A stretch of 64,000 nucleotides of DNA, from positions 10,394 to 74,393 of the forward strand of contig CACJEC010000002.1 of assembly GCA_902592325.1 (NCBI GenBank), read 5' to 3'. Origin of the DNA: an uncultured Pelagibacteraceae bacterium. GTDB taxonomy: Bacteria > Pseudomonadota > Alphaproteobacteria > Pelagibacterales > Pelagibacteraceae. A program made the position numbers and the translations under genes. The notes under the pieces were generated by a model. It ran no database searches and was not told the origin of the DNA. It was given only the letters and a program-made list of their open reading frames with translations. Shown piece after piece: positions 13,526 to 50,759 of this stretch (position 1 is the first letter of the stretch; each line of letters opens with the position of its first letter).

Positions 13526-14236
13526 ATGATGCCGAAAAAGATTAAAAAAAAAAATAAAATTATTAAAAAAAGAAAGACTGCAATTGGTCTTTCAAAATTT
13601 ACATCATTTACTACTGGTTCTATCTCGAAAGCATTTTCAAAGTATAAAAAGAAACAAGAAATAAAAAAAATTAAGGAAATCAAAATAAAAAAACTTGAAG
13701 AAAATAATCAAATTTTAAAAGACAAAAAAGAACTAAAAATTTGGGAAGAAAAACTTAAAAAAGAGAATAATAAACTCTATCAAAAAGAAGATGAATTAAA
13801 ATTAAAAGAAAAAGAATTAAAGTTAAAGGAAGATGCTCAAAAAATAGAAAATAAAAGATTAATAAAAAAAGATGAAGACTTAGGAGCTATAGATAAAGAT
13901 CTTAGAATGAAAGAAAAAGAACTCAAGTTAAGAGAAGAAGAGCAAAATAGAAAAGATATAGATTTAAAAGCGAGAGAAGAAGAACAACAAAATAAAGAAC
14001 TTAAAGAAAAAAGAAAAAAAGAAAAAGCTTTAAAATTAATTATGGAGGAAGAAGAACGTAAAAAGAATTTTGAGTTTATAAGATTAAAAGAATGGGAAGA
14101 AAATTTTGATAGAGAACAAAAAATTAAAGAAGAAAAAGAATTAAGACGTGAACAAAAAATTAAAGATAAAGAGCTAGAAAAATTAAGATCCTCTACTTTA
14201 GAAAACTTCAATATAGATAAGTCTAAAGAAAATTAA
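13526..14236 (+). CDS. Lys/Glu-rich coiled-coil hypothetical protein
   Basis: 236-aa open frame with a very basic N-terminus and KE-rich heptads; internal duplication REQKIKEEKELR/REQKIKDKELE. Confidence 0.65.
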   Translation: MMPKKIKKKNKIIKKRKTAIGLSKFTSFTTGSISKAFSKYKKKQEIKKIKEIKIKKLEENNQILKDKKELKIWEEKLKKENNKLYQKEDELKLKEKELKLKEDAQKIENKRLIKKDEDLGAIDKDLRMKEKELKLREEEQNRKDIDLKAREEEQQNKELKEKRKKEKALKLIMEEEERKKNFEFIRLKEWEENFDREQKIKEEKELRREQKIKDKELEKLRSSTLENFNIDKSKEN

Positions 14237-15024
14237 TTTGCATCTAAAACTGCATGTAAAAATTGTTTAGTTCTTTCATTTTGTGGATCCCCAAATAATT
14301 GCTCTGGTGGTCCTTGTTCAAAAATCTTTCCTTCATTAAAAAAACATACTCTATCTGAAATTTCTCTAGCAAAACCCATTTGATGAGTTACCATTATCAT
14401 AGTTAAGTTATGTTCTTTATTTAAAGACCTAATTACATTTAAAACTTCTCCTACAACCTCTGGATCCAACGCAGATGTTATTTCATCTAAAAGCATTACT
14501 TTTGGTCTCATTGCAAGTGCTCTTGCAATAGCTACTCGTTGTTGTTGTCCACCTGATAATCTACTTGGATGTTGATCTTTTTTATCTGTTAAACCAACAA
14601 GTTCTAATAATTCTAAGGCTCTTTCCTCCGCCTCTTCTTTTTTCATACCTAATACTTCGACTGGCGCCTCTATACAATTTTGTAATGCTGTCATATGTGG
14701 AAATAAATTAAATTGTTGAAATACCATTCCAATTTTCGACCTTCTTTCTCTTAAATATTTTTCATTAGCTTCAGCTAAACTTCCATTAACGTCCATATGT
14801 GTTAAAGGTTCACCATCTAAATGAATTACTCCTCCATTTATCTTTTCTAAAGTCATCAAAACTCTCAATACAGTTGTTTTTCCTGATCCAGACGGACCTA
14901 TAATTGATACCATTTCATTCTTTTTAATTTCTAGATTAAGTTTGTCTAAAACAACTAAATCAGCATATTGTTTGGTTACATCTTCAAACTTGACTATAAT
15001 TTCATCTGAATTATTTTTTTTCAT
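14233..15024 (-). CDS. ehuA: Ehu-type polar amino acid ABC ATP-binding protein
   Basis: GPSGSGKT, LSGGQQQRV, DEITSALDPE; LMTLE..GG.I segment typical of EhuA. Confidence 0.85.
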   Translation of the reverse strand: MKKNNSDEIIVKFEDVTKQYADLVVLDKLNLEIKKNEMVSIIGPSGSGKTTVLRVLMTLEKINGGVIHLDGEPLTHMDVNGSLAEANEKYLRERRSKIGMVFQQFNLFPHMTALQNCIEAPVEVLGMKKEEAEERALELLELVGLTDKKDQHPSRLSGGQQQRVAIARALAMRPKVMLLDEITSALDPEVVGEVLNVIRSLNKEHNLTMIMVTHQMGFAREISDRVCFFNEGKIFEQGPPEQLFGDPQNERTKQFLHAVLDAN

Positions 15025-15027
15025 AGT

Positions 15028-15705
15028 TTATTTTTTAATTTTACCTTGTGCTATATTAACATCTCTTTCAAGTTTTCTAACCCACATTGCAGCAGGTATT
15101 GATAATGTTAGAAAAATAATACCTACTAAAGTATAAGGTTCTAAATATCTATAATTATAACCACCAACTGCTGTAGCTGCGTGAAATAATTCTGCAACCC
15201 CGATTGTTGATAGCAGAGGTGTATCTTTAAATATACCTACCAAATAATTTCCCATACCTGGAATTGCAATAGGAAATGCTTGTGGAAGAACTATTCTTCT
15301 ATAGGTATAAATTGTTGAAAAATTTAAAGCTCTACAAGCTTCCCATTGTGTTTTTGAAACTCCTTCAAGCGCTCCACGATAAACTTCCGACATGTATGTT
15401 CCAAAGTGAAGACCAATAGTAATCATTCCACATACCCATGCAGATAAAGTAATACCAAACTGTGGGAGTACAAAATATACAAAAAATAACTGTATTAGTA
15501 ATGGAGTTGATCTGATAAACTCAACTATTTCTCTATTAGCCCAATTGAAAATTTTTGAAGGTGTTCTTTGTGCTAATAAAAAAAATAATCCAACAATCAA
15601 TGCGATTGCATAACCTACACCAGCTGCAAGAATAGTATTTAGTGTAGCAATCGCCATTTGTGGCAGTATTTCATAAGTAAAATCCCATCTCCAACCCATT
15701 TCCAT
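15028..15705 (-). CDS. ehuD: Ehu-type ABC permease
   Basis: WRWDF N-terminus, RSTPLLIQL, SEVYR, FKDTPLLS. Confidence 0.82.
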   Translation of the reverse strand: MEMGWRWDFTYEILPQMAIATLNTILAAGVGYAIALIVGLFFLLAQRTPSKIFNWANREIVEFIRSTPLLIQLFFVYFVLPQFGITLSAWVCGMITIGLHFGTYMSEVYRGALEGVSKTQWEACRALNFSTIYTYRRIVLPQAFPIAIPGMGNYLVGIFKDTPLLSTIGVAELFHAATAVGGYNYRYLEPYTLVGIIFLTLSIPAAMWVRKLERDVNIAQGKIKK

Positions 15706-15708
15706 GAT

Positions 15709-16380
15709 TTAAATTTTCTCCCTTCCAACCTTTTTAGCAGCTAAAACTTCTAACCATCTTAAAAATGGAACTAATGCAAATCTAGCCATTATATAATAAA
15801 TAAGTAATGCTGTTCCAAAACATTGAGCTGATAGCCATGTTATAGAGTTAATTTGTTTTGCTTCAAAAGTAAGATCTACCACTGTAACTAATGCTACTAG
15901 TGCTGTAGCTTTTAATAGTTCTACTGTTAAATTTGCTGCTGGTGGCAGTATAATCGGAAATATCTGAGGAATTATAATTCTCTTAATTCTTTTCGCTGGA
16001 GTAAAATTTAGTGAATATGCTGCCTCCCATTGTCCTTTTGGTACCGCAAGGATCCCTGCTCGCACTATTTCGGCTCCATAAGCACCAAAATTCAACCCCA
16101 ATGCTACTACTCCAGCTGTAAAGGCCTCTAAAGATATTCCAAAGAATGGTAATACATAGTAAGCCCAAAATAATTGGACTAAAAGTGATGTTCCTCTAAA
16201 AAATTCTATATATACAGTAGCTATACCTTGTATTGCTGGATTTTTAGACAGTCTCATCAACCCAAATATCATAGAAATAACTACATAAAGAATCATTGAA
16301 CATACAAGAACTTTCACAGTTGTAACTGTCCCAAGTAAAAGTGTTATTCCATGTTCATTTAAAAATTCAAAATAAGTCAA
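15709..16380 (-). CDS. ehuC: Ehu-type ABC permease
   Basis: FRGTSLLVQLFW, GAYGAEIVR, ELLKATAL; TTG start. Confidence 0.82.
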   Translation of the reverse strand: MTYFEFLNEHGITLLLGTVTTVKVLVCSMILYVVISMIFGLMRLSKNPAIQGIATVYIEFFRGTSLLVQLFWAYYVLPFFGISLEAFTAGVVALGLNFGAYGAEIVRAGILAVPKGQWEAAYSLNFTPAKRIKRIIIPQIFPIILPPAANLTVELLKATALVALVTVVDLTFEAKQINSITWLSAQCFGTALLIYYIMARFALVPFLRWLEVLAAKKVGREKI

Positions 16381-16399
16381 TCAAATACCTTTAAATTTT

Positions 16400-16431
16400 A
16401 AAAACCAGGCAACAATTAAGTCGCCTGGTTT
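16400..16431 (-). terminator. Stem-loop between the SBP and permease genes
   Basis: Minus strand AAACCAGGCGAC-loop-GTTGCCTGGTTTTT. Confidence 0.75.
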
Positions 16432-16453
16432 ATCTTAATAATTTCTTATTAAA

Positions 16454-17299
16454 TTATTTAGTTGAACAAGCCCACTCAGTACTCATGTCTGGTGGAGGAA
16501 GTTGAGCTTTATCATACCCATACTCTCCAGCTCTTTTCAACATAGTTGCTGGGTTAGCCATAACTTTAGCTAGAGCTACATTAAATGCTTCTCTAAATTT
16601 GTCATCACCTTTTCTAAATCCAATTCCTACAACGTTTAAAGTTTCTTTAGGCATTAATTTTGGATCAGTAACTTCAAATTTGCCATTAGTTTTTTTCTCA
16701 TGCTCTTTAGCACCAAAGAATGTTTGCACTGCAACGTCAGCTCTTCCAGCTTTCATTGCTGCTAAAATACCAACTTCACCTTCAACTAAAAGCATTTGAC
16801 TGTCAGGCACACCATATTTTTTAGCTGCTTCTACAGTATTAAATCCAGTCCCTGTAACTAATTTAGCTCCAGTTGAAATAACATCTGCATAGTTGTTAAT
16901 GTTTTTTGGATTTCCTTTTGGTACTAGCATTGCATCACCAAATACTCCAATTGGATCTGAAAAGTCCATGTTTGCACATCTACTTTTTAAGATATACATT
17001 CCGCCAGTAATCATATCTGCACGGTCTGCATTTAATCCTGGGATTAATCCTGACCATTCAAAAACTTTTGTTTCATGTTCAGTGATACCCATCTCTTCTA
17101 GAACTGTTAATGCTATCATATTAACAAATCCTAAGGCCTCACCACCATCTCCAGCGTAAGCCCATGGCACTGCTGTTCCAAAACCCAGTCTTAATTTGTG
17201 TCCATCCGCAAGTCTTTCAGTAAGAGTTTTCGCACTTACTGTAGAAATTGAAAAAAGAAGCACAAGTAAAACTGTTAATGACTTAAATATTTTACTCAT
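16454..17299 (-). CDS. ehuB: EhuB-like ABC substrate-binding protein (ligand uncertain)
   Basis: Signal peptide; LIPGL..RADM, RC..DFSDP, VPKGNP, IGFRKGD; GAGGAG SD. Confidence 0.75.
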   Translation of the reverse strand: MSKIFKSLTVLLVLLFSISTVSAKTLTERLADGHKLRLGFGTAVPWAYAGDGGEALGFVNMIALTVLEEMGITEHETKVFEWSGLIPGLNADRADMITGGMYILKSRCANMDFSDPIGVFGDAMLVPKGNPKNINNYADVISTGAKLVTGTGFNTVEAAKKYGVPDSQMLLVEGEVGILAAMKAGRADVAVQTFFGAKEHEKKTNGKFEVTDPKLMPKETLNVVGIGFRKGDDKFREAFNVALAKVMANPATMLKRAGEYGYDKAQLPPPDMSTEWACSTK

Positions 17300-17393
17300 A
17301 TTTATCTCCTCATTATTTTTAATTAAGAAATAAGTAAATCAAAAAAGATTTAAAAAGTATAGTTGAAAAATTACAATCTCAAGTTGATAAAAA

Positions 17394-18182
17394 TTATTTT
17401 ATAGAAACATTATCTCCAATATTTACTTGTCCATCATCGAGTGCAGTAAGATAAAGTCCCATATCAAAATGATTGTAAGTTTTTTTTAATGATTGAAGTA
17501 AATTCAAACTATTATCATCCGTATTTGGCTTTAAATTAATTGCAACACATCTTGGAATATTTTTTTCTACTTTAAATGATATATCATTTATTTTAATTAT
17601 TTTTCCTACCCAGTTTCTCTCTTCCCATGCTTCAATTCCATCCACAAATAAATTGCCTCTAAATCTTTGAGATTCAATTTCTTGGTTGATTTTATCTTTA
17701 AAATCTTCAACACTTTTCTTATTTAGTAGAGATATCGAATGCGTTAATACAGTTTTATTAGAAATTGATGTGTCAAAAAAAGGAGTATCTTTATTTTTCA
17801 TCAAAAAAAGAGGTTTTTGGATAGTATTTTCTAATTCTAATATTTTATTTGTAATTAATTCAAATTCTTCTGTTTCATTACTATTTATTGTTAAAATCTC
17901 GTTCTTATTTTGAGTTAATGTTAATTTATCATCATTTAATACAAAATTATATTTATTTAATGAAGGTGTATTTTTAAGAGTTAAAATTTTGTTCCATTTT
18001 CCTCTCCTCTCCTCGAGCTTTTTTTCAAATAACTGAGCTTGATTAAGATCTAAACTTTTAGAAAATGCAAAAATTCTATCTCCGACTATTCCAATATTTT
18101 TTCTAATTTTACAATTTTTAATAGTTTGAAAAGAAATGGATTTTACTGGGCAATAATTTATTGAAGTAATAGATATGCTCAT
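17394..18182 (-). CDS. MOSC-domain (Moco sulfurase C-terminal/mARC-like) protein
   Basis: PVKS, GDRIFA, RFRGNL, PRCVAIN, G.Y......G.V.IGD. Confidence 0.88.
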   Translation of the reverse strand: MSISITSINYCPVKSISFQTIKNCKIRKNIGIVGDRIFAFSKSLDLNQAQLFEKKLEERRGKWNKILTLKNTPSLNKYNFVLNDDKLTLTQNKNEILTINSNETEEFELITNKILELENTIQKPLFLMKNKDTPFFDTSISNKTVLTHSISLLNKKSVEDFKDKINQEIESQRFRGNLFVDGIEAWEERNWVGKIIKINDISFKVEKNIPRCVAINLKPNTDDNSLNLLQSLKKTYNHFDMGLYLTALDDGQVNIGDNVSIK

Positions 18183-18200
18183 ATAATCTTTTAAAATAAT

Positions 18201-19028
18201 ATGACTTATCTAACCTCAAATCAACTTAAACAATATGAAGATGAAGGTTTTGTTTCACCAATAAATATTTTTTCAAAAGAAAAGGCAAAAGAAATTAGAA
18301 GCGAAATTGAGTTAATTGAAAAAGATATGCCAGAAGAATTAGAAAAATCAGGAAGATATAATGCTCATTTAATATCACCTTTATTAGACGAGGTTACACA
18401 TAACTCTAAAATCTTAGACGCTGTTGAGAGTCTTATTGGAAAAAATATTCTTGTTTGTGGTACTACTTTATTTATCAAAAATCCTAATGAAAAAGGTTTC
18501 GTTAGTTATCACCAAGATGCAAAATATATAGGTTTAGAGCCATATAATTGGGTAACAGCTTGGGTTGCAATTACTGATTCTAATGAGAAAAATGGATGTA
18601 TGAAAATGTGGTCAGGCTCTCATAGAGATAATCTCAAAGATCATGATCAAATGTTTAATGAAGGTAATTTATTAACTAGAGGTCAGACTATCAATAATGT
18701 TCCGAAAGAAAAATTAAAATCCCTAATTTTAAAAGCTGGTCAAATGTCTCTACACCATCCAACCGTAGTTCATGGATCACAATTAAATAAAAGTAATGAT
18801 AGAAGAATAGGATTTGTTATCCAAAGTTATATTGGGACTGATGTTAAACAAGTTTTAGGAAAAAATAGTGTTCAACTAGCAAGAGGTATTGATGATTTTA
18901 AATATCATAAAAAAATCGGAAGACCCAAGTCATTAATGAATGATAATGATTTAAAAATAAAAGAAGAAGAGAATAAAAATCTTCAAGAAATTTTTTATAA
19001 AGGCTCTTCAAAAAAAGGAACTTATTAA
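18201..19028 (+). CDS. PhyH/EctD-family Fe(II)/2-oxoglutarate dioxygenase
   Basis: HQD...H facial triad (YHQDA, VHGS), TAWVAI, NGCM, N.S.DRRIG. Confidence 0.88.
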   Translation: MTYLTSNQLKQYEDEGFVSPINIFSKEKAKEIRSEIELIEKDMPEELEKSGRYNAHLISPLLDEVTHNSKILDAVESLIGKNILVCGTTLFIKNPNEKGFVSYHQDAKYIGLEPYNWVTAWVAITDSNEKNGCMKMWSGSHRDNLKDHDQMFNEGNLLTRGQTINNVPKEKLKSLILKAGQMSLHHPTVVHGSQLNKSNDRRIGFVIQSYIGTDVKQVLGKNSVQLARGIDDFKYHKKIGRPKSLMNDNDLKIKEEENKNLQEIFYKGSSKKGTY

Positions 19029-19053: not shown

Positions 19054-19281
19054 ATGAATAAAGAAAATGCAAGTAAACTGTGGAAAATGATGCAGGAAGC
19101 TGGCGATTATTTGGTTGGTCAATTACCAGATCATCCAAACCATCCAAAAGGAAGAAATCCTTATGCACATGTTGCTATATGTGTGAAAAATCATTTTAAT
19201 GCGAGTTATAAAGATATTCCGGATGAAAAATTTAATGAAGTAGTAAAATATATTGAATTTTTAAAAAAAAATCCTAGTTAG
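19054..19281 (+). CDS. Small hypothetical protein (ORF6C-like C-terminus)
   Basis: 75 aa with HP.HPKGRNPYAH and F.ASYKDIPD motifs; AGG upstream. Confidence 0.75.
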   Translation: MNKENASKLWKMMQEAGDYLVGQLPDHPNHPKGRNPYAHVAICVKNHFNASYKDIPDEKFNEVVKYIEFLKKNPS

Positions 19282-19294
19282 AGACTTATACAAT

Positions 19295-20410
19295 TTATTG
19301 TTTTGGAAAATAATCTTTTAAAGTTCCTTCTCGGTAAACATCTGCAGTGCAACAATGTAGTCCACCACCAAATGCATACGCATCCCTAAGTTCAACTGGT
19401 ATTACTTCCATTCCAAGTTTATCTAGTTGATCTGCTTGATAAATTTCACTTTTTTCTACACATACTGTTTTTGGATCTAAAACTAAAACATTCATTGATA
19501 GCCATGTTGATGAATAACATAAAGGTGGTGGCTCATTATGTGCGGGTTGAGCACTGTCAATAATTTCCCAACCATTGTCTTCAAATAACTTTCTTTGTTC
19601 TTTTGGGAGTCTTCTTTGAGGATTATTAATAATTAATCCTTCTTTGATTGGAGTAAAAGTTGCATCTATATGAATTGGGTACGGGTCACCAGGGAAATTA
19701 ACTGCATGAACTCTATGATCTTTGTAATGTCTTTTTAACCAATCAATTCCCTTTAAGTTTGTTGTAAAACCATGTTGTACAACTAAATCTTTACCAAATC
19801 TTAACACATCAGCTGCATCAAATAGTGGTTCTTCTTCTGTAGTTACAAAATATTTTTTTTCTGTCCACTCCAATCTTTTTTGAACACCAATTTTTTCTGA
19901 AAGATAATCTTTTCTATAATCTGCATCAGTTAATCTTGGTTTTGGAGCTGATTCATGTCTCATATTAGGATCAGAATTATAATATTCTTTTAAAAGAGGT
20001 CGGTAACACAGATATTCAAACCAACGACATCGATAACTCATTGTTGCCTCTAAAATTTCATTTCCAACAGTTAGCAGAACGTCTCTAGGAGGCATGCAAC
20101 CAAACATAGTTTCGGCTTCCCAATCAGGTGTTGATGTTTTTTGATTAAAATCTATTGGAGTTGGTCTATCTACCTTAATACCTTTTTTTTCAAGCATATT
20201 TGAAAAATCATTTAAAAGTTGGTTAGCTTTATCAACTGTATCTTTAGTTCTAGGTCCAAATTGACCTCTCATATCACTATCCTCAGGAACTTTTGCATCT
20301 AATGCAGGCTCTGGTGCTGGAATACATGTGCCATCTGCTCGACCAACAATTACATGTTTTAAAGGATCCCATTCGTTCCAACTGTTAACGATTGTTTTAT
20401 TTCCATTCAT
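19295..20410 (-). CDS. Glycine amidinotransferase (AGAT/StrB1-type)
   Basis: NSWNEWDPLK..IVGRA, PRD, FDAAD (Asp), HID (His), GGGLHC (Cys): complete catalytic triad. Confidence 0.92.
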   Translation of the reverse strand: MNGNKTIVNSWNEWDPLKHVIVGRADGTCIPAPEPALDAKVPEDSDMRGQFGPRTKDTVDKANQLLNDFSNMLEKKGIKVDRPTPIDFNQKTSTPDWEAETMFGCMPPRDVLLTVGNEILEATMSYRCRWFEYLCYRPLLKEYYNSDPNMRHESAPKPRLTDADYRKDYLSEKIGVQKRLEWTEKKYFVTTEEEPLFDAADVLRFGKDLVVQHGFTTNLKGIDWLKRHYKDHRVHAVNFPGDPYPIHIDATFTPIKEGLIINNPQRRLPKEQRKLFEDNGWEIIDSAQPAHNEPPPLCYSSTWLSMNVLVLDPKTVCVEKSEIYQADQLDKLGMEVIPVELRDAYAFGGGLHCCTADVYREGTLKDYFPKQ

Positions 20411-20414
20411 AATA

Positions 20415-21632
20415 TCAGTTTCTTATAATATTGTGCTCAGGACCAAAAGGAAATTTTGTAATATTTTCTACACCATCTTTTCCAATCACTAAGATATCAT
20501 GTTCGCGATAACCACCTGCACCAAGATTACCTTCTGGAATCATAATCATTGGTTCCATTGAAACTACCATGTTTTCTTCAAGCACTGTATCAATATCTTC
20601 TCTCAGCTCTAATCCAGCTTCTCTGCCATAAAAATGGGAGAGCATACCAAATGAATGACCATAACCAAAAGTTCTGAATTGAAGAAATCCAAGTTCAGCG
20701 AAAAGTTCATTAAGCTCATGACAAATATCTGAGCATTTAACACCCGGTTTAATAAGTTCTAGGCCTCTTTTGTGAACTTTTACATTTGCTTCCCATGCTT
20801 TTAAAGATGCGTCGTCTGCATGATCAACAAATAAAGTTCTTTCTAAAGCTGTGTAGTAACCTGAAATCATTGGAAAAGTATTTAATGATAAAATATCACC
20901 TTTTAATAATTTTCTGTTCGTTTTTGGATTGTGAGCTCCATCAGTGTTAATTCCAGATTGAAACCAAACCCAAGTGTCCATATACTCTGCATCTGGATAA
21001 GATTTAGCTATTTCTCTTTCCATTTTATCTCTACCAGCTATAGCAATTTCTAACTCAGTATTGCCCTCTCGAATATTTTTTACAATTTCCTCACCTCCGA
21101 TATCAGCTATTCTTGCTCCATTTTTAATAATCTCTATTTCCTCTTTAGATTTTATCATTCTTAACTTCATTAAATCTTTAGAAATATCGCTAAATACTGA
21201 AAAAGTGAATATAGATCCTATTTTTTCTCTCATCTCTAGTGTTACATGATCATTTTCAATACCAACTCTTTTTGGAGGCTCGTCTCTTCCTATAATAGAT
21301 ACAATTGCTCTTAAAAAATTATCTCTTTTCCAGTCAGTATAAATTACATTATCACAGTGCGATCTACGCCAGGGCTGACTTGCATCAATATTTGCTGAAA
21401 TAGTAGAAATTTTATTTTCAGTTATCACGCAACCATATGGTCTTCCAAAAGAACAATAAATAAAACCTGTGTAATAAGCAATATTGTGCATAGATGTTAA
21501 AATAATCATATCTAGATTATTTTTATCCATCAGCGACCTAAGCTTAATTAGTCTTTTACTGTATTCATCGTCTGAAAAAGGAAGTTTTACTTTCTCTCCA
21601 TTTTTTAATTCAAAAAAATCAGGTCTTTCCAT
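20415..21632 (-). CDS. Creatinase (creatine amidinohydrolase, M24 fold)
   Basis: YCSFGR, QPWRR, WFQSGINTDGAHNP, GYYTALERT, GYGHSFG..SH.YGREAGLELRED, GYREHDIL. Confidence 0.93.
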   Translation of the reverse strand: MERPDFFELKNGEKVKLPFSDDEYSKRLIKLRSLMDKNNLDMIILTSMHNIAYYTGFIYCSFGRPYGCVITENKISTISANIDASQPWRRSHCDNVIYTDWKRDNFLRAIVSIIGRDEPPKRVGIENDHVTLEMREKIGSIFTFSVFSDISKDLMKLRMIKSKEEIEIIKNGARIADIGGEEIVKNIREGNTELEIAIAGRDKMEREIAKSYPDAEYMDTWVWFQSGINTDGAHNPKTNRKLLKGDILSLNTFPMISGYYTALERTLFVDHADDASLKAWEANVKVHKRGLELIKPGVKCSDICHELNELFAELGFLQFRTFGYGHSFGMLSHFYGREAGLELREDIDTVLEENMVVSMEPMIMIPEGNLGAGGYREHDILVIGKDGVENITKFPFGPEHNIIRN

Positions 21633-21649
21633 TTAATTCACCTTAGAAA

Positions 21650-22555
21650 TTAATTTAATCCAATATATCGTTTATTCCATCTCATAATCAAACTGTAATA
21701 AAATAAAGATATGAATAAAAAGAAACCACCAATAATAGTATTTGTATCTGGTACCTCATTAATACCAAATAAAGGCAACCATACCCAAAAGATTCCACCA
21801 ATTACTTCTGTTAAAGAAAGTAATGTTAATTCAGCAGCAGGAATTGCTTTAGAGCCAATAGAATATAAAATTAATCCAAGACAAACTAAAGTACCGTGTA
21901 ATGAAAATAATGAACTATTGTAACTGGATGAAAAAAAAACTTGTCCTTTAAATAAAATCATTATTGTAGCAAAAATAAAACAAAAAAATCCTGCAAAAGC
22001 TACTGTTGTAAATTTGGGTGTTTCTTTTCTCCATCTTAGGGTAACTGAAAACACTGAAAAACCTATCGAAGAAGTAATTCCAAACACAAATCCAACAAGT
22101 GAGTTTTCTCCGGTATTTCCAAAAGCCATTATTATTATTCCTACAGTTGCAATAAAAATTGAAATCCAAACATTCAGAGAAATTTGTTCTTTTAAAAAAA
22201 TAAATGCTAAAAGTGCTGTAAAGAAAGGCATTGCAGCTAAACATAACAAAGTAATTGCTGCGGAGGTGTTTGTAATTGAATAAATAAAAGATATCATGGC
22301 AATTCCAAGCCCTGAGCCACCAATAATTCCAGATATTCCTACTTTTAAATAATTTTTCCAAAAAGATAATCCTTCTTCAAAATATAAGTATAGATTAAGT
22401 AAAAGAAAAATTGTTAACCCTCGCCCAAAAATATATTGCCAAGGTACTTGATTAGGATTGTCCATATATCGGACCACTAAAGGTCCAAAAGACCATAAAA
22501 TTCCAGCAAATAAAACAACTGGAACCGCTATTTTGGGATTTTTTAATTCAAGCAT
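21650..22555 (-). CDS. DMT/EamA-family transporter
   Basis: About 10 TM; PAAELTLLSLTEVIGG; 17 bp upstream of the creatinase. Confidence 0.88.
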   Translation of the reverse strand: MLELKNPKIAVPVVLFAGILWSFGPLVVRYMDNPNQVPWQYIFGRGLTIFLLLNLYLYFEEGLSFWKNYLKVGISGIIGGSGLGIAMISFIYSITNTSAAITLLCLAAMPFFTALLAFIFLKEQISLNVWISIFIATVGIIIMAFGNTGENSLVGFVFGITSSIGFSVFSVTLRWRKETPKFTTVAFAGFFCFIFATIMILFKGQVFFSSSYNSSLFSLHGTLVCLGLILYSIGSKAIPAAELTLLSLTEVIGGIFWVWLPLFGINEVPDTNTIIGGFFLFISLFYYSLIMRWNKRYIGLN

Positions 22556-22606: not shown

Positions 22607-23854
22607 TTAGTCTAAAATTTTATTTGGATTGTTGGGCAAAAAGCATTCAATAATTTGACCTTTTTTAAATTTAGATTGTCCAGATGGCAGCAAGGCCCAT
22701 ACATTTGATCTAACAAAAGAGTTAATTCTAAAAGACTCTTGACCAGGTAATAATTCTACTTCTAGTTTACCATTTGTGGTTGTGTTTATTTTACTTTTTA
22801 TAAATCTTGTAATTTTTTTATTTTTTTCAAAATTATTCTTCAAAATAGCAAGTATAGGTTTTTCATGCTTAAGATTTAAAATATTTTCAATAAATGGATA
22901 AACAAAAAATCTGAAGCATGCTGCAGAAGAAATTGGATTTCCTGGCAAACCAAATATTATTTTTTGATTAATTTTTGCAAATAATACTGGTTTTCCTGGT
23001 CTAATCATTACATTTTTAAAATAATGCGAGGTCTTAAATTGTTTAACAACACTGGGTATATAATCAAACTTTCCCGCAGAAACAGCACCTGAGGTAATAA
23101 TTATGTCAGTTTTAGATTTAAGCATTTTATTTATCTTTGATTTAAATAATTGTTTATGATGATCTTTTAAAATTCCTCCATCTTTAAAATTGAACAAAAA
23201 ATTATTATTCAAACTTTTAATGTAATGACTATTCGAATTTCTTACTTTCCAACTTGGGATTTTATTAGAATTAGAAATTTCATTACCAGTTGAAAAAAAT
23301 AAAATATTCAATTTCTTTTTAACCTTTATTTTTTTTACCCCTAATGTCTTTAAAGCCAAGATATGATTAGGTTGAATAATCGTACCTTTCTTGATTATCA
23401 ATTGTTTTTTTTTATAATCTGACCCTTTAAAACGAACATTTTCATACTTAATAGCCCTATGATCAATTATAATAAATTTTGGATTTTGTTTGTTGGGAAA
23501 AAAATTAATTTGTTCAATCGGAATAATTGTATTAAATATTTTAGGAATAATCCCCCCAGTCATTATTTCAACAGTTTCAAATTTTTTAATTTTTTTTTTT
23601 AAAGGTTTATTTCCAGCTGCAATGGAACCTATTATTTTAAAACGTTTTGGTTTTTTTTTATTTATATATTTTGTATCATTTGAATTTATAGCAAAACCGT
23701 CAAAAGCAGCATTATCCTCGAGTGGATAATCAGAAGGAGATAAAATATCTTTTGAAATAACTCTGTTTAAAGAGTTCTTAATTAAAATTTTTTCATCTTT
23801 AATATTAATTTTTGCTTTTTTTAAAATTTTTTTTGCTTGATAATAATTAATCAT
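22607..23854 (-). CDS. moeA: Molybdopterin molybdotransferase
   Basis: AAFDGFA, IMTGG, STGNE, SGAVSAG..D, RPGKP, GLPGNP. Confidence 0.95.
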   Translation of the reverse strand: MINYYQAKKILKKAKINIKDEKILIKNSLNRVISKDILSPSDYPLEDNAAFDGFAINSNDTKYINKKKPKRFKIIGSIAAGNKPLKKKIKKFETVEIMTGGIIPKIFNTIIPIEQINFFPNKQNPKFIIIDHRAIKYENVRFKGSDYKKKQLIIKKGTIIQPNHILALKTLGVKKIKVKKKLNILFFSTGNEISNSNKIPSWKVRNSNSHYIKSLNNNFLFNFKDGGILKDHHKQLFKSKINKMLKSKTDIIITSGAVSAGKFDYIPSVVKQFKTSHYFKNVMIRPGKPVLFAKINQKIIFGLPGNPISSAACFRFFVYPFIENILNLKHEKPILAILKNNFEKNKKITRFIKSKINTTTNGKLEVELLPGQESFRINSFVRSNVWALLPSGQSKFKKGQIIECFLPNNPNKILD

Positions 23855-24452
23855 TTAAGATTTTGTTTGCTTTTTTTAAATCCTCTTGAGTATTAATATT
23901 AAAGAAAGGATCTTCTTTTTCAAATGACATATTAATTGTTTTAACTCCAATATTATTAGCCCATTTTTCAACTTTTCTTGATCCATTTTCTAAATCTTTT
24001 TCTAGCTGATCAATTAAACTTGTAGACCATAAACCAAATATATTGTGTCGTTTATTATTAAATGTCATAAAAAATAATTCACTCTCTTTTTCATTAACTT
24101 TTTTAAAAAAGTTATTAAGAATATTCTTTTTAAAGAATGGAGTGTCTGAAGGAAATGATGCAATCCATTTATAAGACTTATTTTTATCTTTTGCCCATTT
24201 CATTGCAGTAAAGATCCCTCCTAATGGCCCAAGATCTTTTCTAAAATCTTTTATTTTTCTAATTTTATTTGATGATAGATGTTTGATGGGGTCATTTGCG
24301 ACAATAAGAATTTCATTAAATTCATCTATCAATTCTGACAAAATATAATCAATAAGGATTTTTCCTCCTAATTTAACTTGAGATTTATCTTCACCAAATC
24401 GTTTAGATTTTCCTCCTGCTAGTACTACGGGTAAAATATTGTTATGATCCAT
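23847..24452 (-). CDS. mobA: Molybdenum cofactor guanylyltransferase
   Basis: LAGGKSKRFGEDK, GPLGGI, PSDTPF, FFNINT.EDL. Confidence 0.95.
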   Translation of the reverse strand: MDHNNILPVVLAGGKSKRFGEDKSQVKLGGKILIDYILSELIDEFNEILIVANDPIKHLSSNKIRKIKDFRKDLGPLGGIFTAMKWAKDKNKSYKWIASFPSDTPFFKKNILNNFFKKVNEKESELFFMTFNNKRHNIFGLWSTSLIDQLEKDLENGSRKVEKWANNIGVKTINMSFEKEDPFFNINTQEDLKKANKILND

Positions 24453-49700: not shown

Positions 49701-49858
49701 TTTACCCATCTGTATATTTGCCTGAGAGTTTTGCTCCTTCGGCGAGAATTTAATCTCTTTCCAGAGTTAATACGTTACGGTCCTTTTTGCCTGAGAGATT
49801 CCTGGGTGGTTGCTCCTTCGGCGCTACGGTGTTTTGTAGTCTCTCCCGTATAGTCATA
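49701..49858 (-). ncRNA. Tandem glycine riboswitch
   Basis: Minus strand carries two aptamers, GGAGAGA...CGCCGAAGGAGCAA...CTCTCAGGC and CTGGAAAG...CGCCGAAGGAGCAAAACTCTCAGGC, directly upstream of gcvT. Confidence 0.95.
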
Positions 49859-49880: not shown

Positions 49881-50759
49881 TCAATTAGAAACACTTTTTT
49901 TAGACTTATTTAAAAGTGAGTAAAACTGCAATAATACTGCAGAAAGAATTATTGCTCCGCCAATTAATCCAAAAACTGAGGGTCTTTCGCTAACAAATAG
50001 AAAAGCCCATATAGGTCCTAACACAGATTCGGACAACATAATTACGCCAACTATAGCAGAAGGAGTTGTTCTTGCTCCAATTGTAATAAATATAAAACCA
50101 AAACCGACTTGAAAAAAACCAGCTAAGAAACCTAAAAAAATATCATTAGGCGATATCATTAGTTTAGTTGAAAGTAAAAATCCGACTAAACATGAACATA
50201 CTCCAGCTACAAATTGAGCTGGCACCATATCTACATTTGGGTATTTTCTTATTATAATTATTAAAATTGCAAAAACTATAGGCATTGAAAATGCTGCTAG
50301 ATTTCCAGATAATTCACCTGGTGAAAGTGAATTTCCAACCATCAATAAAACACCCATCATTGCTAAAAAAATTGAAATCAGAGTTATAACGCTAATTTTT
50401 TCTTTTAAAAAAAAATATCCAAAAATAGCTAAAAACAATATCTGAAGTGAAATAATAAAGTTTGTATTAGCAACAGTAGTATTATACATGGCAAAAACAT
50501 ATCCACAGAATCCAATAGATAAAATTATTCCACCTAGGAACCCAGGTAAACCCGACACATAAAATGATTTAAAAGTATCTTTTTTATAACTGATTATTAG
50601 AAATGCTAAAACTGTAAGAGTAAAAAAAAATGATCTCCAAAATAATATTTGCCATAAAGTTGCACCTTCAAAGGATTTAACTATTAATCCACCAAAGCTT
50701 AAACTTAAGGCACCTAAAAAAATTAACAATGGACCTGGTAAGTTTCTTATTATATTCAT
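49881..50759 (-). CDS. DMT/EamA-family transporter
   Basis: About 10 TM; LSESVLGPIWA. Confidence 0.88.
   Translation of the reverse strand: MNIIRNLPGPLLIFLGALSLSFGGLIVKSFEGATLWQILFWRSFFFTLTVLAFLIISYKKDTFKSFYVSGLPGFLGGIILSIGFCGYVFAMYNTTVANTNFIISLQILFLAIFGYFFLKEKISVITLISIFLAMMGVLLMVGNSLSPGELSGNLAAFSMPIVFAILIIIIRKYPNVDMVPAQFVAGVCSCLVGFLLSTKLMISPNDIFLGFLAGFFQVGFGFIFITIGARTTPSAIVGVIMLSESVLGPIWAFLFVSERPSVFGLIGGAIILSAVLLQFYSLLNKSKKSVSN

Follow-up and report, generated by a model that had tools for sequence, protein, structure and literature searches.

Amidinotransferases hold the transferred amidino group on an active-site cysteine, and their reaction is reversible. A flap around residue 300 shapes the choice of acceptor within the family, and the accessible sections of one study give its sequence as DPNPM in human arginine:glycine amidinotransferase (AGAT), DIFPS in CyrA and DMHPM in AmtA (PMC4887976). 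The available part of another article mentions, as an aside, guanidinoacetate and creatine as possible substrates and/or inhibitors of AGAT (PMC9103764), which adds plausibility to creatine as a substrate and may trim the novelty of what we propose. Here we analyse an AGAT-type enzyme of SAR11, encoded with a creatinase and an EamA transporter in a window of 64,000 nucleotides (the whole stretch of DNA analysed, from an uncultured Pelagibacteraceae bacterium). The window is SAR11-type DNA, and its closest named records are from Pelagibacter (92–99% protein identity). The gene block is real, conserved and annotated, and so far uncharacterised: in the open-access literature we found annotation but no functional study of the orthologues in strain HTCC1062, no study of the SAR11 enzyme, and no proposal of sarcosine as its acceptor. 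A SAR11 creatinase has been mentioned as an enriched gene (PMC3686209), and creatine use has been proposed for AEGEAN-169 (PMC11366302). Our best reading, held tentatively, is that the block salvages amidino groups from creatine, and perhaps from guanidinoacetate, by moving them onto ornithine, with the creatinase as an optional branch. More specifically, SAR11 GatM may be an arginine:sarcosine amidinotransferase, which with a secondary amine as acceptor would connect arginine to creatine in one step and independently of S-adenosylmethionine, and it may be the enzyme behind the creatine labelling seen in North Pacific seawater; this is possible, but more doubtful.

The best PDB matches of the amidinotransferase are human AGAT (E = 6e-88). 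Its AlphaFold model (pLDDT 83) lies nearer in fold to the transferases AGAT, SxtG, HsvA and StrB1 (Foldseek TM 0.80–0.83, E 1e-31 to 1e-38; human AGAT at TM 0.82–0.83 and 42–43% identity) than to the hydrolases ADI and DDAH (TM 0.50–0.61, E 1e-10 to 1e-12). The triad D198/H247/C353 aligns with human D254/H303/C407; D198 and C353 are invariant in 283 of 283 aligned homologues, and H247 is found in 280, the other three having gaps. D110, D249, R266, S300 and S301, all kept, match human D170, D305, R322, S354 and S355, which we take to be the residues of the arginine/ornithine site. With fold and triad intact, the enzyme is a predicted member of the amidinotransferase family (EC 2.1.4.-). The 300-flap reads DPYPI, with Y244 and I246 where the human enzyme has N300 and M302, as it does in 267 of the 283 homologues; the surrounding motif, PGDPYPIHID, is almost invariant, and the SAR11-type enzymes form a tight clade of their own, in a family tree that was built without named references and so does not place this clade against animal AGAT. 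Membership of EC 2.1.4.1 appears less probable given the altered flap, but the departure from Asn300/Met302 does not exclude it, because CyrA (Phe/Ser) also departs and still uses glycine.

The choice between glycine and sarcosine as acceptor draws on isotope data from the sea. Boysen et al. 2022 fed 13C5,15N1-betaine to North Pacific communities and, in the portions of the article and tables considered here, sarcosine became 30–78% labelled and label in glycine was not detected, although up to 5% could have escaped notice. In the North, 13C3,15N1-creatine rose from 0.04% to 2.2% at 4.5 h and 8–10% later, and in the South from 0.08% to 5.4% at 6 h and 6–8% later (their Table S3); 13C1-creatine was flat at 2–3%, and the unlabelled creatine pool showed no rise. 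SAR11 dominated the bhmt transcripts, and to explain the creatine the authors invoke either a creatinase working in reverse or an unidentified enzyme that turns sarcosine into creatine (PMC9321204). The appearance of 13C3,15N1-creatine without the glycine-type or single-methyl label expected of a route through glycine, AGAT and guanidinoacetate methyltransferase (GAMT) suggests that sarcosine entered intact, and the SAR11 dominance of bhmt suggests that labelled sarcosine arises largely in cells carrying the amidinotransferase gene. This pattern is what a reversible arginine:sarcosine (creatine:ornithine) amidinotransferase would produce, whether through net synthesis or through exchange. Together with the gene context, these outside data make us lean towards sarcosine, not glycine, as the physiological acceptor; that sarcosine and creatine are truly turned over as a main pair is conceivable, though we would not count on it. 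The sequence-only reading had offered amidino salvage onto ornithine from either guanidinoacetate or creatine: the salvage is still the best reading, with the isotope data now favouring creatine and sarcosine over guanidinoacetate and glycine.

These data also bear on a classical AGAT confined to glycine and guanidinoacetate, which would run in reverse to give arginine and glycine while the creatinase acts separately on creatine. We consider this unlikely, since it leaves unexplained the intact passage of sarcosine into creatine with neither 13C1 nor glycine signal in the published portions at hand. Human AGAT structures are the nearest solved relatives, and according to parts of two sources (PMC3684758, PMC4887976) strict glycine use in CyrA is associated with an aromatic residue at the site of human N300, where CyrA/AoaA have Phe and the SAR11 enzyme Tyr. 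Threonine aldolase, another glycine source, also directly follows the amidinotransferase gene, before a 75-aa open reading frame (ORF), in 47 of 80 loci (here and below, the best 80 of 587 confirmed loci), although not in the window. Yet AmtA keeps the flap methionine and rejects glycine, so that resemblance to AGAT does not settle which acceptor is used (PMC4887976, in part). Nor did we find a source of guanidinoacetate or a GAMT link: as had been noted from the sequence, neither a secondary-metabolite cluster nor a methyltransferase lies next to the three genes, GAMT not having been searched for genome-wide.

We surveyed 150 genomes of the order: 107 from the window's own genus (Pelagibacter), 20 from family f184 and 23 that belong to the window's own family but to other genera. 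The amidinotransferase is carried by 105 of the 107, 19 of the 20 and none of the 23, and the creatinase by 69, one and none, respectively. The same genus pattern as for the amidinotransferase is seen for soxB (107/107, 18/20, 2/23) and for a GbuA-type ureohydrolase (98/107, 16/20, 0/23, read by hand). The genus tallies include the unpublished genome G473, without which they become 104 for the amidinotransferase, 68 for the creatinase and 106 for soxB, each out of 106. Near-core and slow-changing (across 38 loci its median identity to the window's copy is 95%, and that of MoeA 68%), the amidinotransferase fits primary metabolism; in Pelagibacter it carries nothing but an automatic label (gatM) or a wrong one, 'serine/threonine kinase'. 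NCBI and UniRef label many orthologues 'serine/threonine protein kinase' (P0011, P0027, P0078, P0113 and cluster members), a propagated misannotation. Outside the order, matches were obtained in 10 of 400 genomes of the class, seven of which reach at least 62% identity, and in family f83, which we infer from protein names to be roseobacter-type, 53 of 251 genomes match at 69–83% identity. Genome G000, 75% complete, has two soxB copies and argG and argH motifs; urease, ureF/G, argF, ornithine cyclodeaminase and the GbuA-type gene were not found in it.

Gene order was EamA–creatinase–amidinotransferase in 44 of the 80 loci and EamA–amidinotransferase in 31, the other five having a contig edge or an insertion. 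In 68 of the 69 Pelagibacter genomes with a creatinase it adjoins the amidinotransferase gene (coordinates compared by hand), the remaining genome, G530, being split over contigs; 36 of the 105 amidinotransferase carriers have no creatinase match, and its presence changes at least five times on a tree of 72 loci. Because the creatinase was repeatedly gained or lost while the adjacency of the other two survived, the fixed core of the SAR11 block is EamA plus amidinotransferase, and the creatinase is optional. The pairing put forward from the sequence is conserved among the Pelagibacter genomes that have both genes and recurs in two f83 contexts, but it is optional, and an obligate creatinase–amidinotransferase pathway is ruled out by the creatinase-free carriers, the repeated gains and losses and the independence of the two genes in f83. 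Genome streamlining could have packed unrelated neighbours together: short gaps and EamA genes are common in this DNA, moeA is equally close, and f83 copies of the amidinotransferase do mostly stand alone. Such packing is nonetheless hardly credible against the adjacency of the creatinase in almost every Pelagibacter genome that has it, the persistence of the EamA–amidinotransferase neighbourhood through creatinase loss, and the finding of adjacency in two f83 contexts where about 0.1 would be expected among 31 genomes with both genes (a hand estimate, 13 kb of ~3.8 Mb each).

The optional creatinase also bears on the direction of flux. With a net forward reaction, arginine and sarcosine (or glycine) would give ornithine and creatine (or guanidinoacetate), and either the creatinase would close a cycle that substitutes for arginase or EamA would export the product or the cell would store it. 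An ordinary creatinase would be enough if sarcosine is the carrier, export is common among EamA proteins, and both Pelagibacter ureohydrolases look more like GpuA/GbuA and agmatinase than like arginase. SAR11 binds arginine at 32 pM, according to the part of the source available (PMC11485210), and labelled creatine did form at sea in the portions cited above (PMC9321204). However, the cycle would lack its creatinase in the third or so of Pelagibacter carriers without one, and nitrogen would be discarded as urea in strains that have no urease, which the accessible text reports for HTCC1062 and HTCC7211 (PMC8437039). In f83 there is no exclusion of arginase, a true arginase being present in 33 of 53 amidinotransferase carriers versus 141 of 198 non-carriers (p=0.24; kin not independent), so that arginase replacement as a general role is not supported there. 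We regard net forward flux as quite unlikely, and the same two observations, missing creatinases and retained arginases, weaken the earlier suggestion of an arginase substitute built on a guanidinoacetate-accepting creatinase.

Loci were fetched for 41 of the 53 f83 carriers. The creatinase lies within 6.5 kb of the amidinotransferase in four of them, in two separate contexts; in one (L135:846-7111), ornithine cyclodeaminase, arginase, creatinase and amidinotransferase are clustered, and a second arginase lies elsewhere in the genome. Methylated-glycine metabolism is the commonest neighbourhood theme among homologues, although not the sole one. A homocysteine methyltransferase gene overlaps the amidinotransferase gene in L119. 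Three Pelagibacter genomes carry a second copy (75% identity, Tyr at position 300, PSRD motif), which follows BHMT-like and dimethylglycine-dehydrogenase-like genes in L167, follows choline dehydrogenase and is itself followed by EamA genes in L166, and precedes oxygenase genes in L165; the enzymes of this second clade may use a different acceptor. The methyltransferase after the L167 paralogue was considered as a GAMT and rejected, its best PDB match being METTL27-like, with no GAMT match.

Other neighbours raise the question of a different marine guanidine partner (taurocyamine, guanidinopropionate, guanidinobutyrate or a diaminobutyrate derivative), or of a broad entry into guanidino salvage with no tie to creatine. 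The f184 enzyme has the same active-site motifs and lies beside a Lys/Arg/Orn-type ATP-binding cassette (ABC) system and DoeA-like hydrolases; the amidinotransferase gene heads a eutABC-like operon in L098, and in L146 it has urease accessory genes on one side and an ABC/DoeA-like cluster on the other. The genus pattern shared by the GbuA-type ureohydrolase points the same way, and the part of a preprint considered lists gatm as a taurine-to-taurocyamine route, citing a reference and by annotation only (bioRxiv 2024.12.10.627767). Nevertheless, true creatinase is the only guanidino-hydrolysing gene that directly adjoins the amidinotransferase in more than one lineage, and no taurine genes were seen directly beside its main copy in the neighbourhoods examined, so we hold such a partner to be rather improbable. 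A GpuA/GbuA-like ureohydrolase with an aldehyde dehydrogenase (L112:1384-3797) occurs in most Pelagibacter and f184 genomes and was not found in the other genera; it is a candidate guanidino-acid route and may correspond to what is called 'arginase speB1' in HTCC1062. An agmatinase-type ureohydrolase 5 kb away in L093 was dropped as a partner, since it is a different protein from the GbuA-type one.

The creatinase is alike over its full length to three solved creatinases (E 1e-147 to 1e-161; 3e-161 for 7YTO and 5e-161 for 1CHM), and keeps H234, R64, E264, R337, E360, F62 and Y260, to which we assign catalytic or active-site roles. Both the GAHNP motif here and the Asp-His-Cys triad of the amidinotransferase, singled out from the sequence, are intact on alignment to solved structures. 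The sequence-only reading had also remarked on NIDASQP as a possible sign of altered specificity. The difference is real (NIDGGQP in 1CHM, GIDGGQP in 7YTO), but the motif reads DAS, DSS, DAG or DAA in 53 + 21 aligned creatinase homologues. The f83 creatinases have DAG, DAA or DAS, and a stand-alone copy, L181, has NIDASQP exactly; this is ordinary family variation, which rules out a specificity switch. DGG is thus not a defining creatinase feature, and the protein, predicted to be a creatinase, has the other family features tested. The f83 creatinases most similar to those of SAR11 (66%) come from two genomes where the creatinase gene is convergent with the gene of an agmatinase-type ureohydrolase (L175:6119-7090 and L176:6233-7207).

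Data from the cultured strain HTCC1062 concern genes C134_0686-0689, orthologous by annotation and by gene order after moeA. In the portion of the study available, C134_0687-0689 are labelled creatinase/pepQ, gatM and threonine aldolase and were detected as mRNA and protein; C134_0686, which has no name in the table, was detected as mRNA only. Under nitrogen limitation, compared with control stationary phase, GatM protein rose 1.44-fold (q 0.006) and creatinase stood at 0.89-fold, with ArgF at 0.81, ArgG at 0.68 and ArgH at 0.63; GatM and creatinase were unchanged in exponential phase, and mRNA was flat (PMC3870248). The supplement text of a sulfur-limitation proteome, as far as available, had no rows matching these genes.

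EamA is a fixed neighbour of the amidinotransferase in Pelagibacter, and the link is strong only there. The domain itself is clear (PF00892, E 2e-15, 57.7 bits against a cut-off of 28.2), and this EamA is absent from the 20 other creatinase loci examined. Independent support for EamA as a creatine carrier was sought in its orthologues elsewhere and not obtained. Neither was a dedicated creatine-binding protein: the searchable text and supplements of one screen mention only phosphocreatine, not creatine or sarcosine, which leaves that screen silent (PMC11485210).

Several observations weigh against salvage from creatine and against sarcosine as acceptor. In Table S2 of the labelling study, as available, the 13C3,15N1 trend is given for the North experiment alone, and 13C2,15N1 also appears there in an untargeted row (PMC9321204); moreover, the labelling is at the level of the community, and its source could be eukaryotic AGAT or exchange by creatinase. 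The enzyme has no residue or insertion that would betray acceptance of an N-methyl group: the two residues next to the site where that methyl is expected, D110 and G348, have not changed, and SxtG shares the one extra residue in the loop before PRD. The GatM shift is small with flat mRNA, and arginine breakdown fits the proteome data as well as salvage does. Outside Pelagibacter, EamA orthologues (22 of 240 class genomes, best 45–48% identity) adjoin neither gene. In f83, 37 of the 41 loci lack a creatinase within 6.5 kb and lie mainly among unrelated genes, and at genome level the creatinase shows no association with the amidinotransferase (39 of 53 carriers versus 131 of 198 non-carriers; p=0.33; kin not independent). 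The f184 gene diverges from the Lys/Arg/Orn-type ABC cluster, with DoeA-like hydrolases also near, and ectoine eutABC/doeA-like genes flank the amidinotransferase in L098, L160, L162 and L146. Finally, the match with soxB amounts to one or two shared lineage events and is weak evidence, the GbuA-type ureohydrolase having a like pattern.

Table 1. Features of the gene block and its surroundings in the window
Feature	Position	Strand	Details
EamA/DMT transporter	21650..22555	minus	301 aa, PF00892; HTCC1062 C134_0686 by position
Creatinase (creatine amidinohydrolase)	20415..21632	minus	405 aa; optional middle gene; HTCC1062 C134_0687
AGAT-type amidinotransferase	19295..20410	minus	371 aa; triad D198/H247/C353; HTCC1062 C134_0688, gatM
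moeA + mobA	22607..24452	minus	co-directional, 51 bp upstream of the EamA gene
75-aa ORF	19054..19281	plus	convergent; marks the downstream end of the gene block
EhuB-like ABC system, MOSC protein, PhyH dioxygenase	14233-19028		1–5 kb downstream
Glycine riboswitch (RF00504)	49768-49858	minus	64.6 bits; directly upstream of gcvT-gcvH-gcvP
EamA-like gene	49884-50759		precedes the glycine riboswitch

The three genes of the block were described from the sequence as lying on one strand with spacings of 17 and 4 bp, and the ORF coordinates bear this out (Table 1). Contigs from RNA libraries cover all three, although contigs cannot show a single transcript; some join EamA to the creatinase and others EamA directly to the amidinotransferase. 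They come from four seawater libraries, representing at most three samples and two studies. A promoter scan of the block gave 28 promoter-like sites, against 36.8 in shuffled sequences, and no terminators, and Rfam detected no riboswitch at the block, the glycine riboswitch being the sole match. We rank moeA and mobA as context and not as part of the pathway because they are missing from many related loci; read-through from them is possible. Downstream, the 75-aa ORF is near the amidinotransferase in 70 of 80 loci, and an EhuB-like gene is close to the amidinotransferase in 6 of 80, its counterpart in the window scoring 159.7 bits, under the 190.9 cut-off. The window holds several EamA-like genes.

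In the salvage scheme, creatine from plankton would enter the cell via EamA or another carrier and would react reversibly with ornithine to give arginine and sarcosine. This step would keep two nitrogen atoms that urease-less strains lose as urea and would spare the ArgF/G/H route. Sarcosine would then yield glycine and one-carbon units via sarcosine oxidase, and the creatinase, where present, would hydrolyse surplus creatine to sarcosine and urea, as an overflow. Because the amidinotransferase is proposed to be reversible, betaine-derived sarcosine could be amidinated or exchanged into creatine, which would account for the labelling at sea. Should the enzyme accept sarcosine, the amidinotransferase family would gain a new reaction, creatine would have a second route of formation, and guanidino nitrogen could be retained with no need of urease. 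The most abundant marine heterotrophs would then pass guanidino nitrogen from creatine to arginine and back in the same urease-free manner, and the question put in print by Boysen et al. 2022 would have an answer.

Among known systems, human AGAT/GATM (EC 2.1.4.1; 1JDW, 4JDW) is like the SAR11 enzyme in fold, triad and the five arginine/ornithine-site equivalents, at the identity given above. It differs in the flap (DPNPM versus DPYPI here) and at two other motifs, where it reads QRSQ and LWMSS and the SAR11 enzyme QHGF and LCYSS; unlike it, the SAR11 gene has no adjacent GAMT, is paired with a creatine-degrading enzyme and is proposed to run towards arginine. CyrA/AoaA, AmtA, SxtG, StrB1 and HsvA share family and triad, with 34–39% identity to the SAR11 enzyme for SxtG, HsvA and StrB1, and CyrA is likewise aromatic at the N300 position. 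In contrast to these secondary-metabolite and virulence enzymes, the SAR11 gene is mostly single-copy and near-core, forms its own clade outside any biosynthetic cluster, and belongs to free-living marine Alphaproteobacteria. The Pseudomonas putida creatinase 1CHM, with 7YTO and 1KP0 (EC 3.5.3.3), matches the SAR11 creatinase along its full length and in the key residues. The solved creatinases differ in having DGG instead of DAS and Tyr instead of Met at position 49, both SAR11 states being common to f83 creatinases, and the SAR11 gene is placed before an amidinotransferase gene and not with sarcosine oxidase or creatininase genes.

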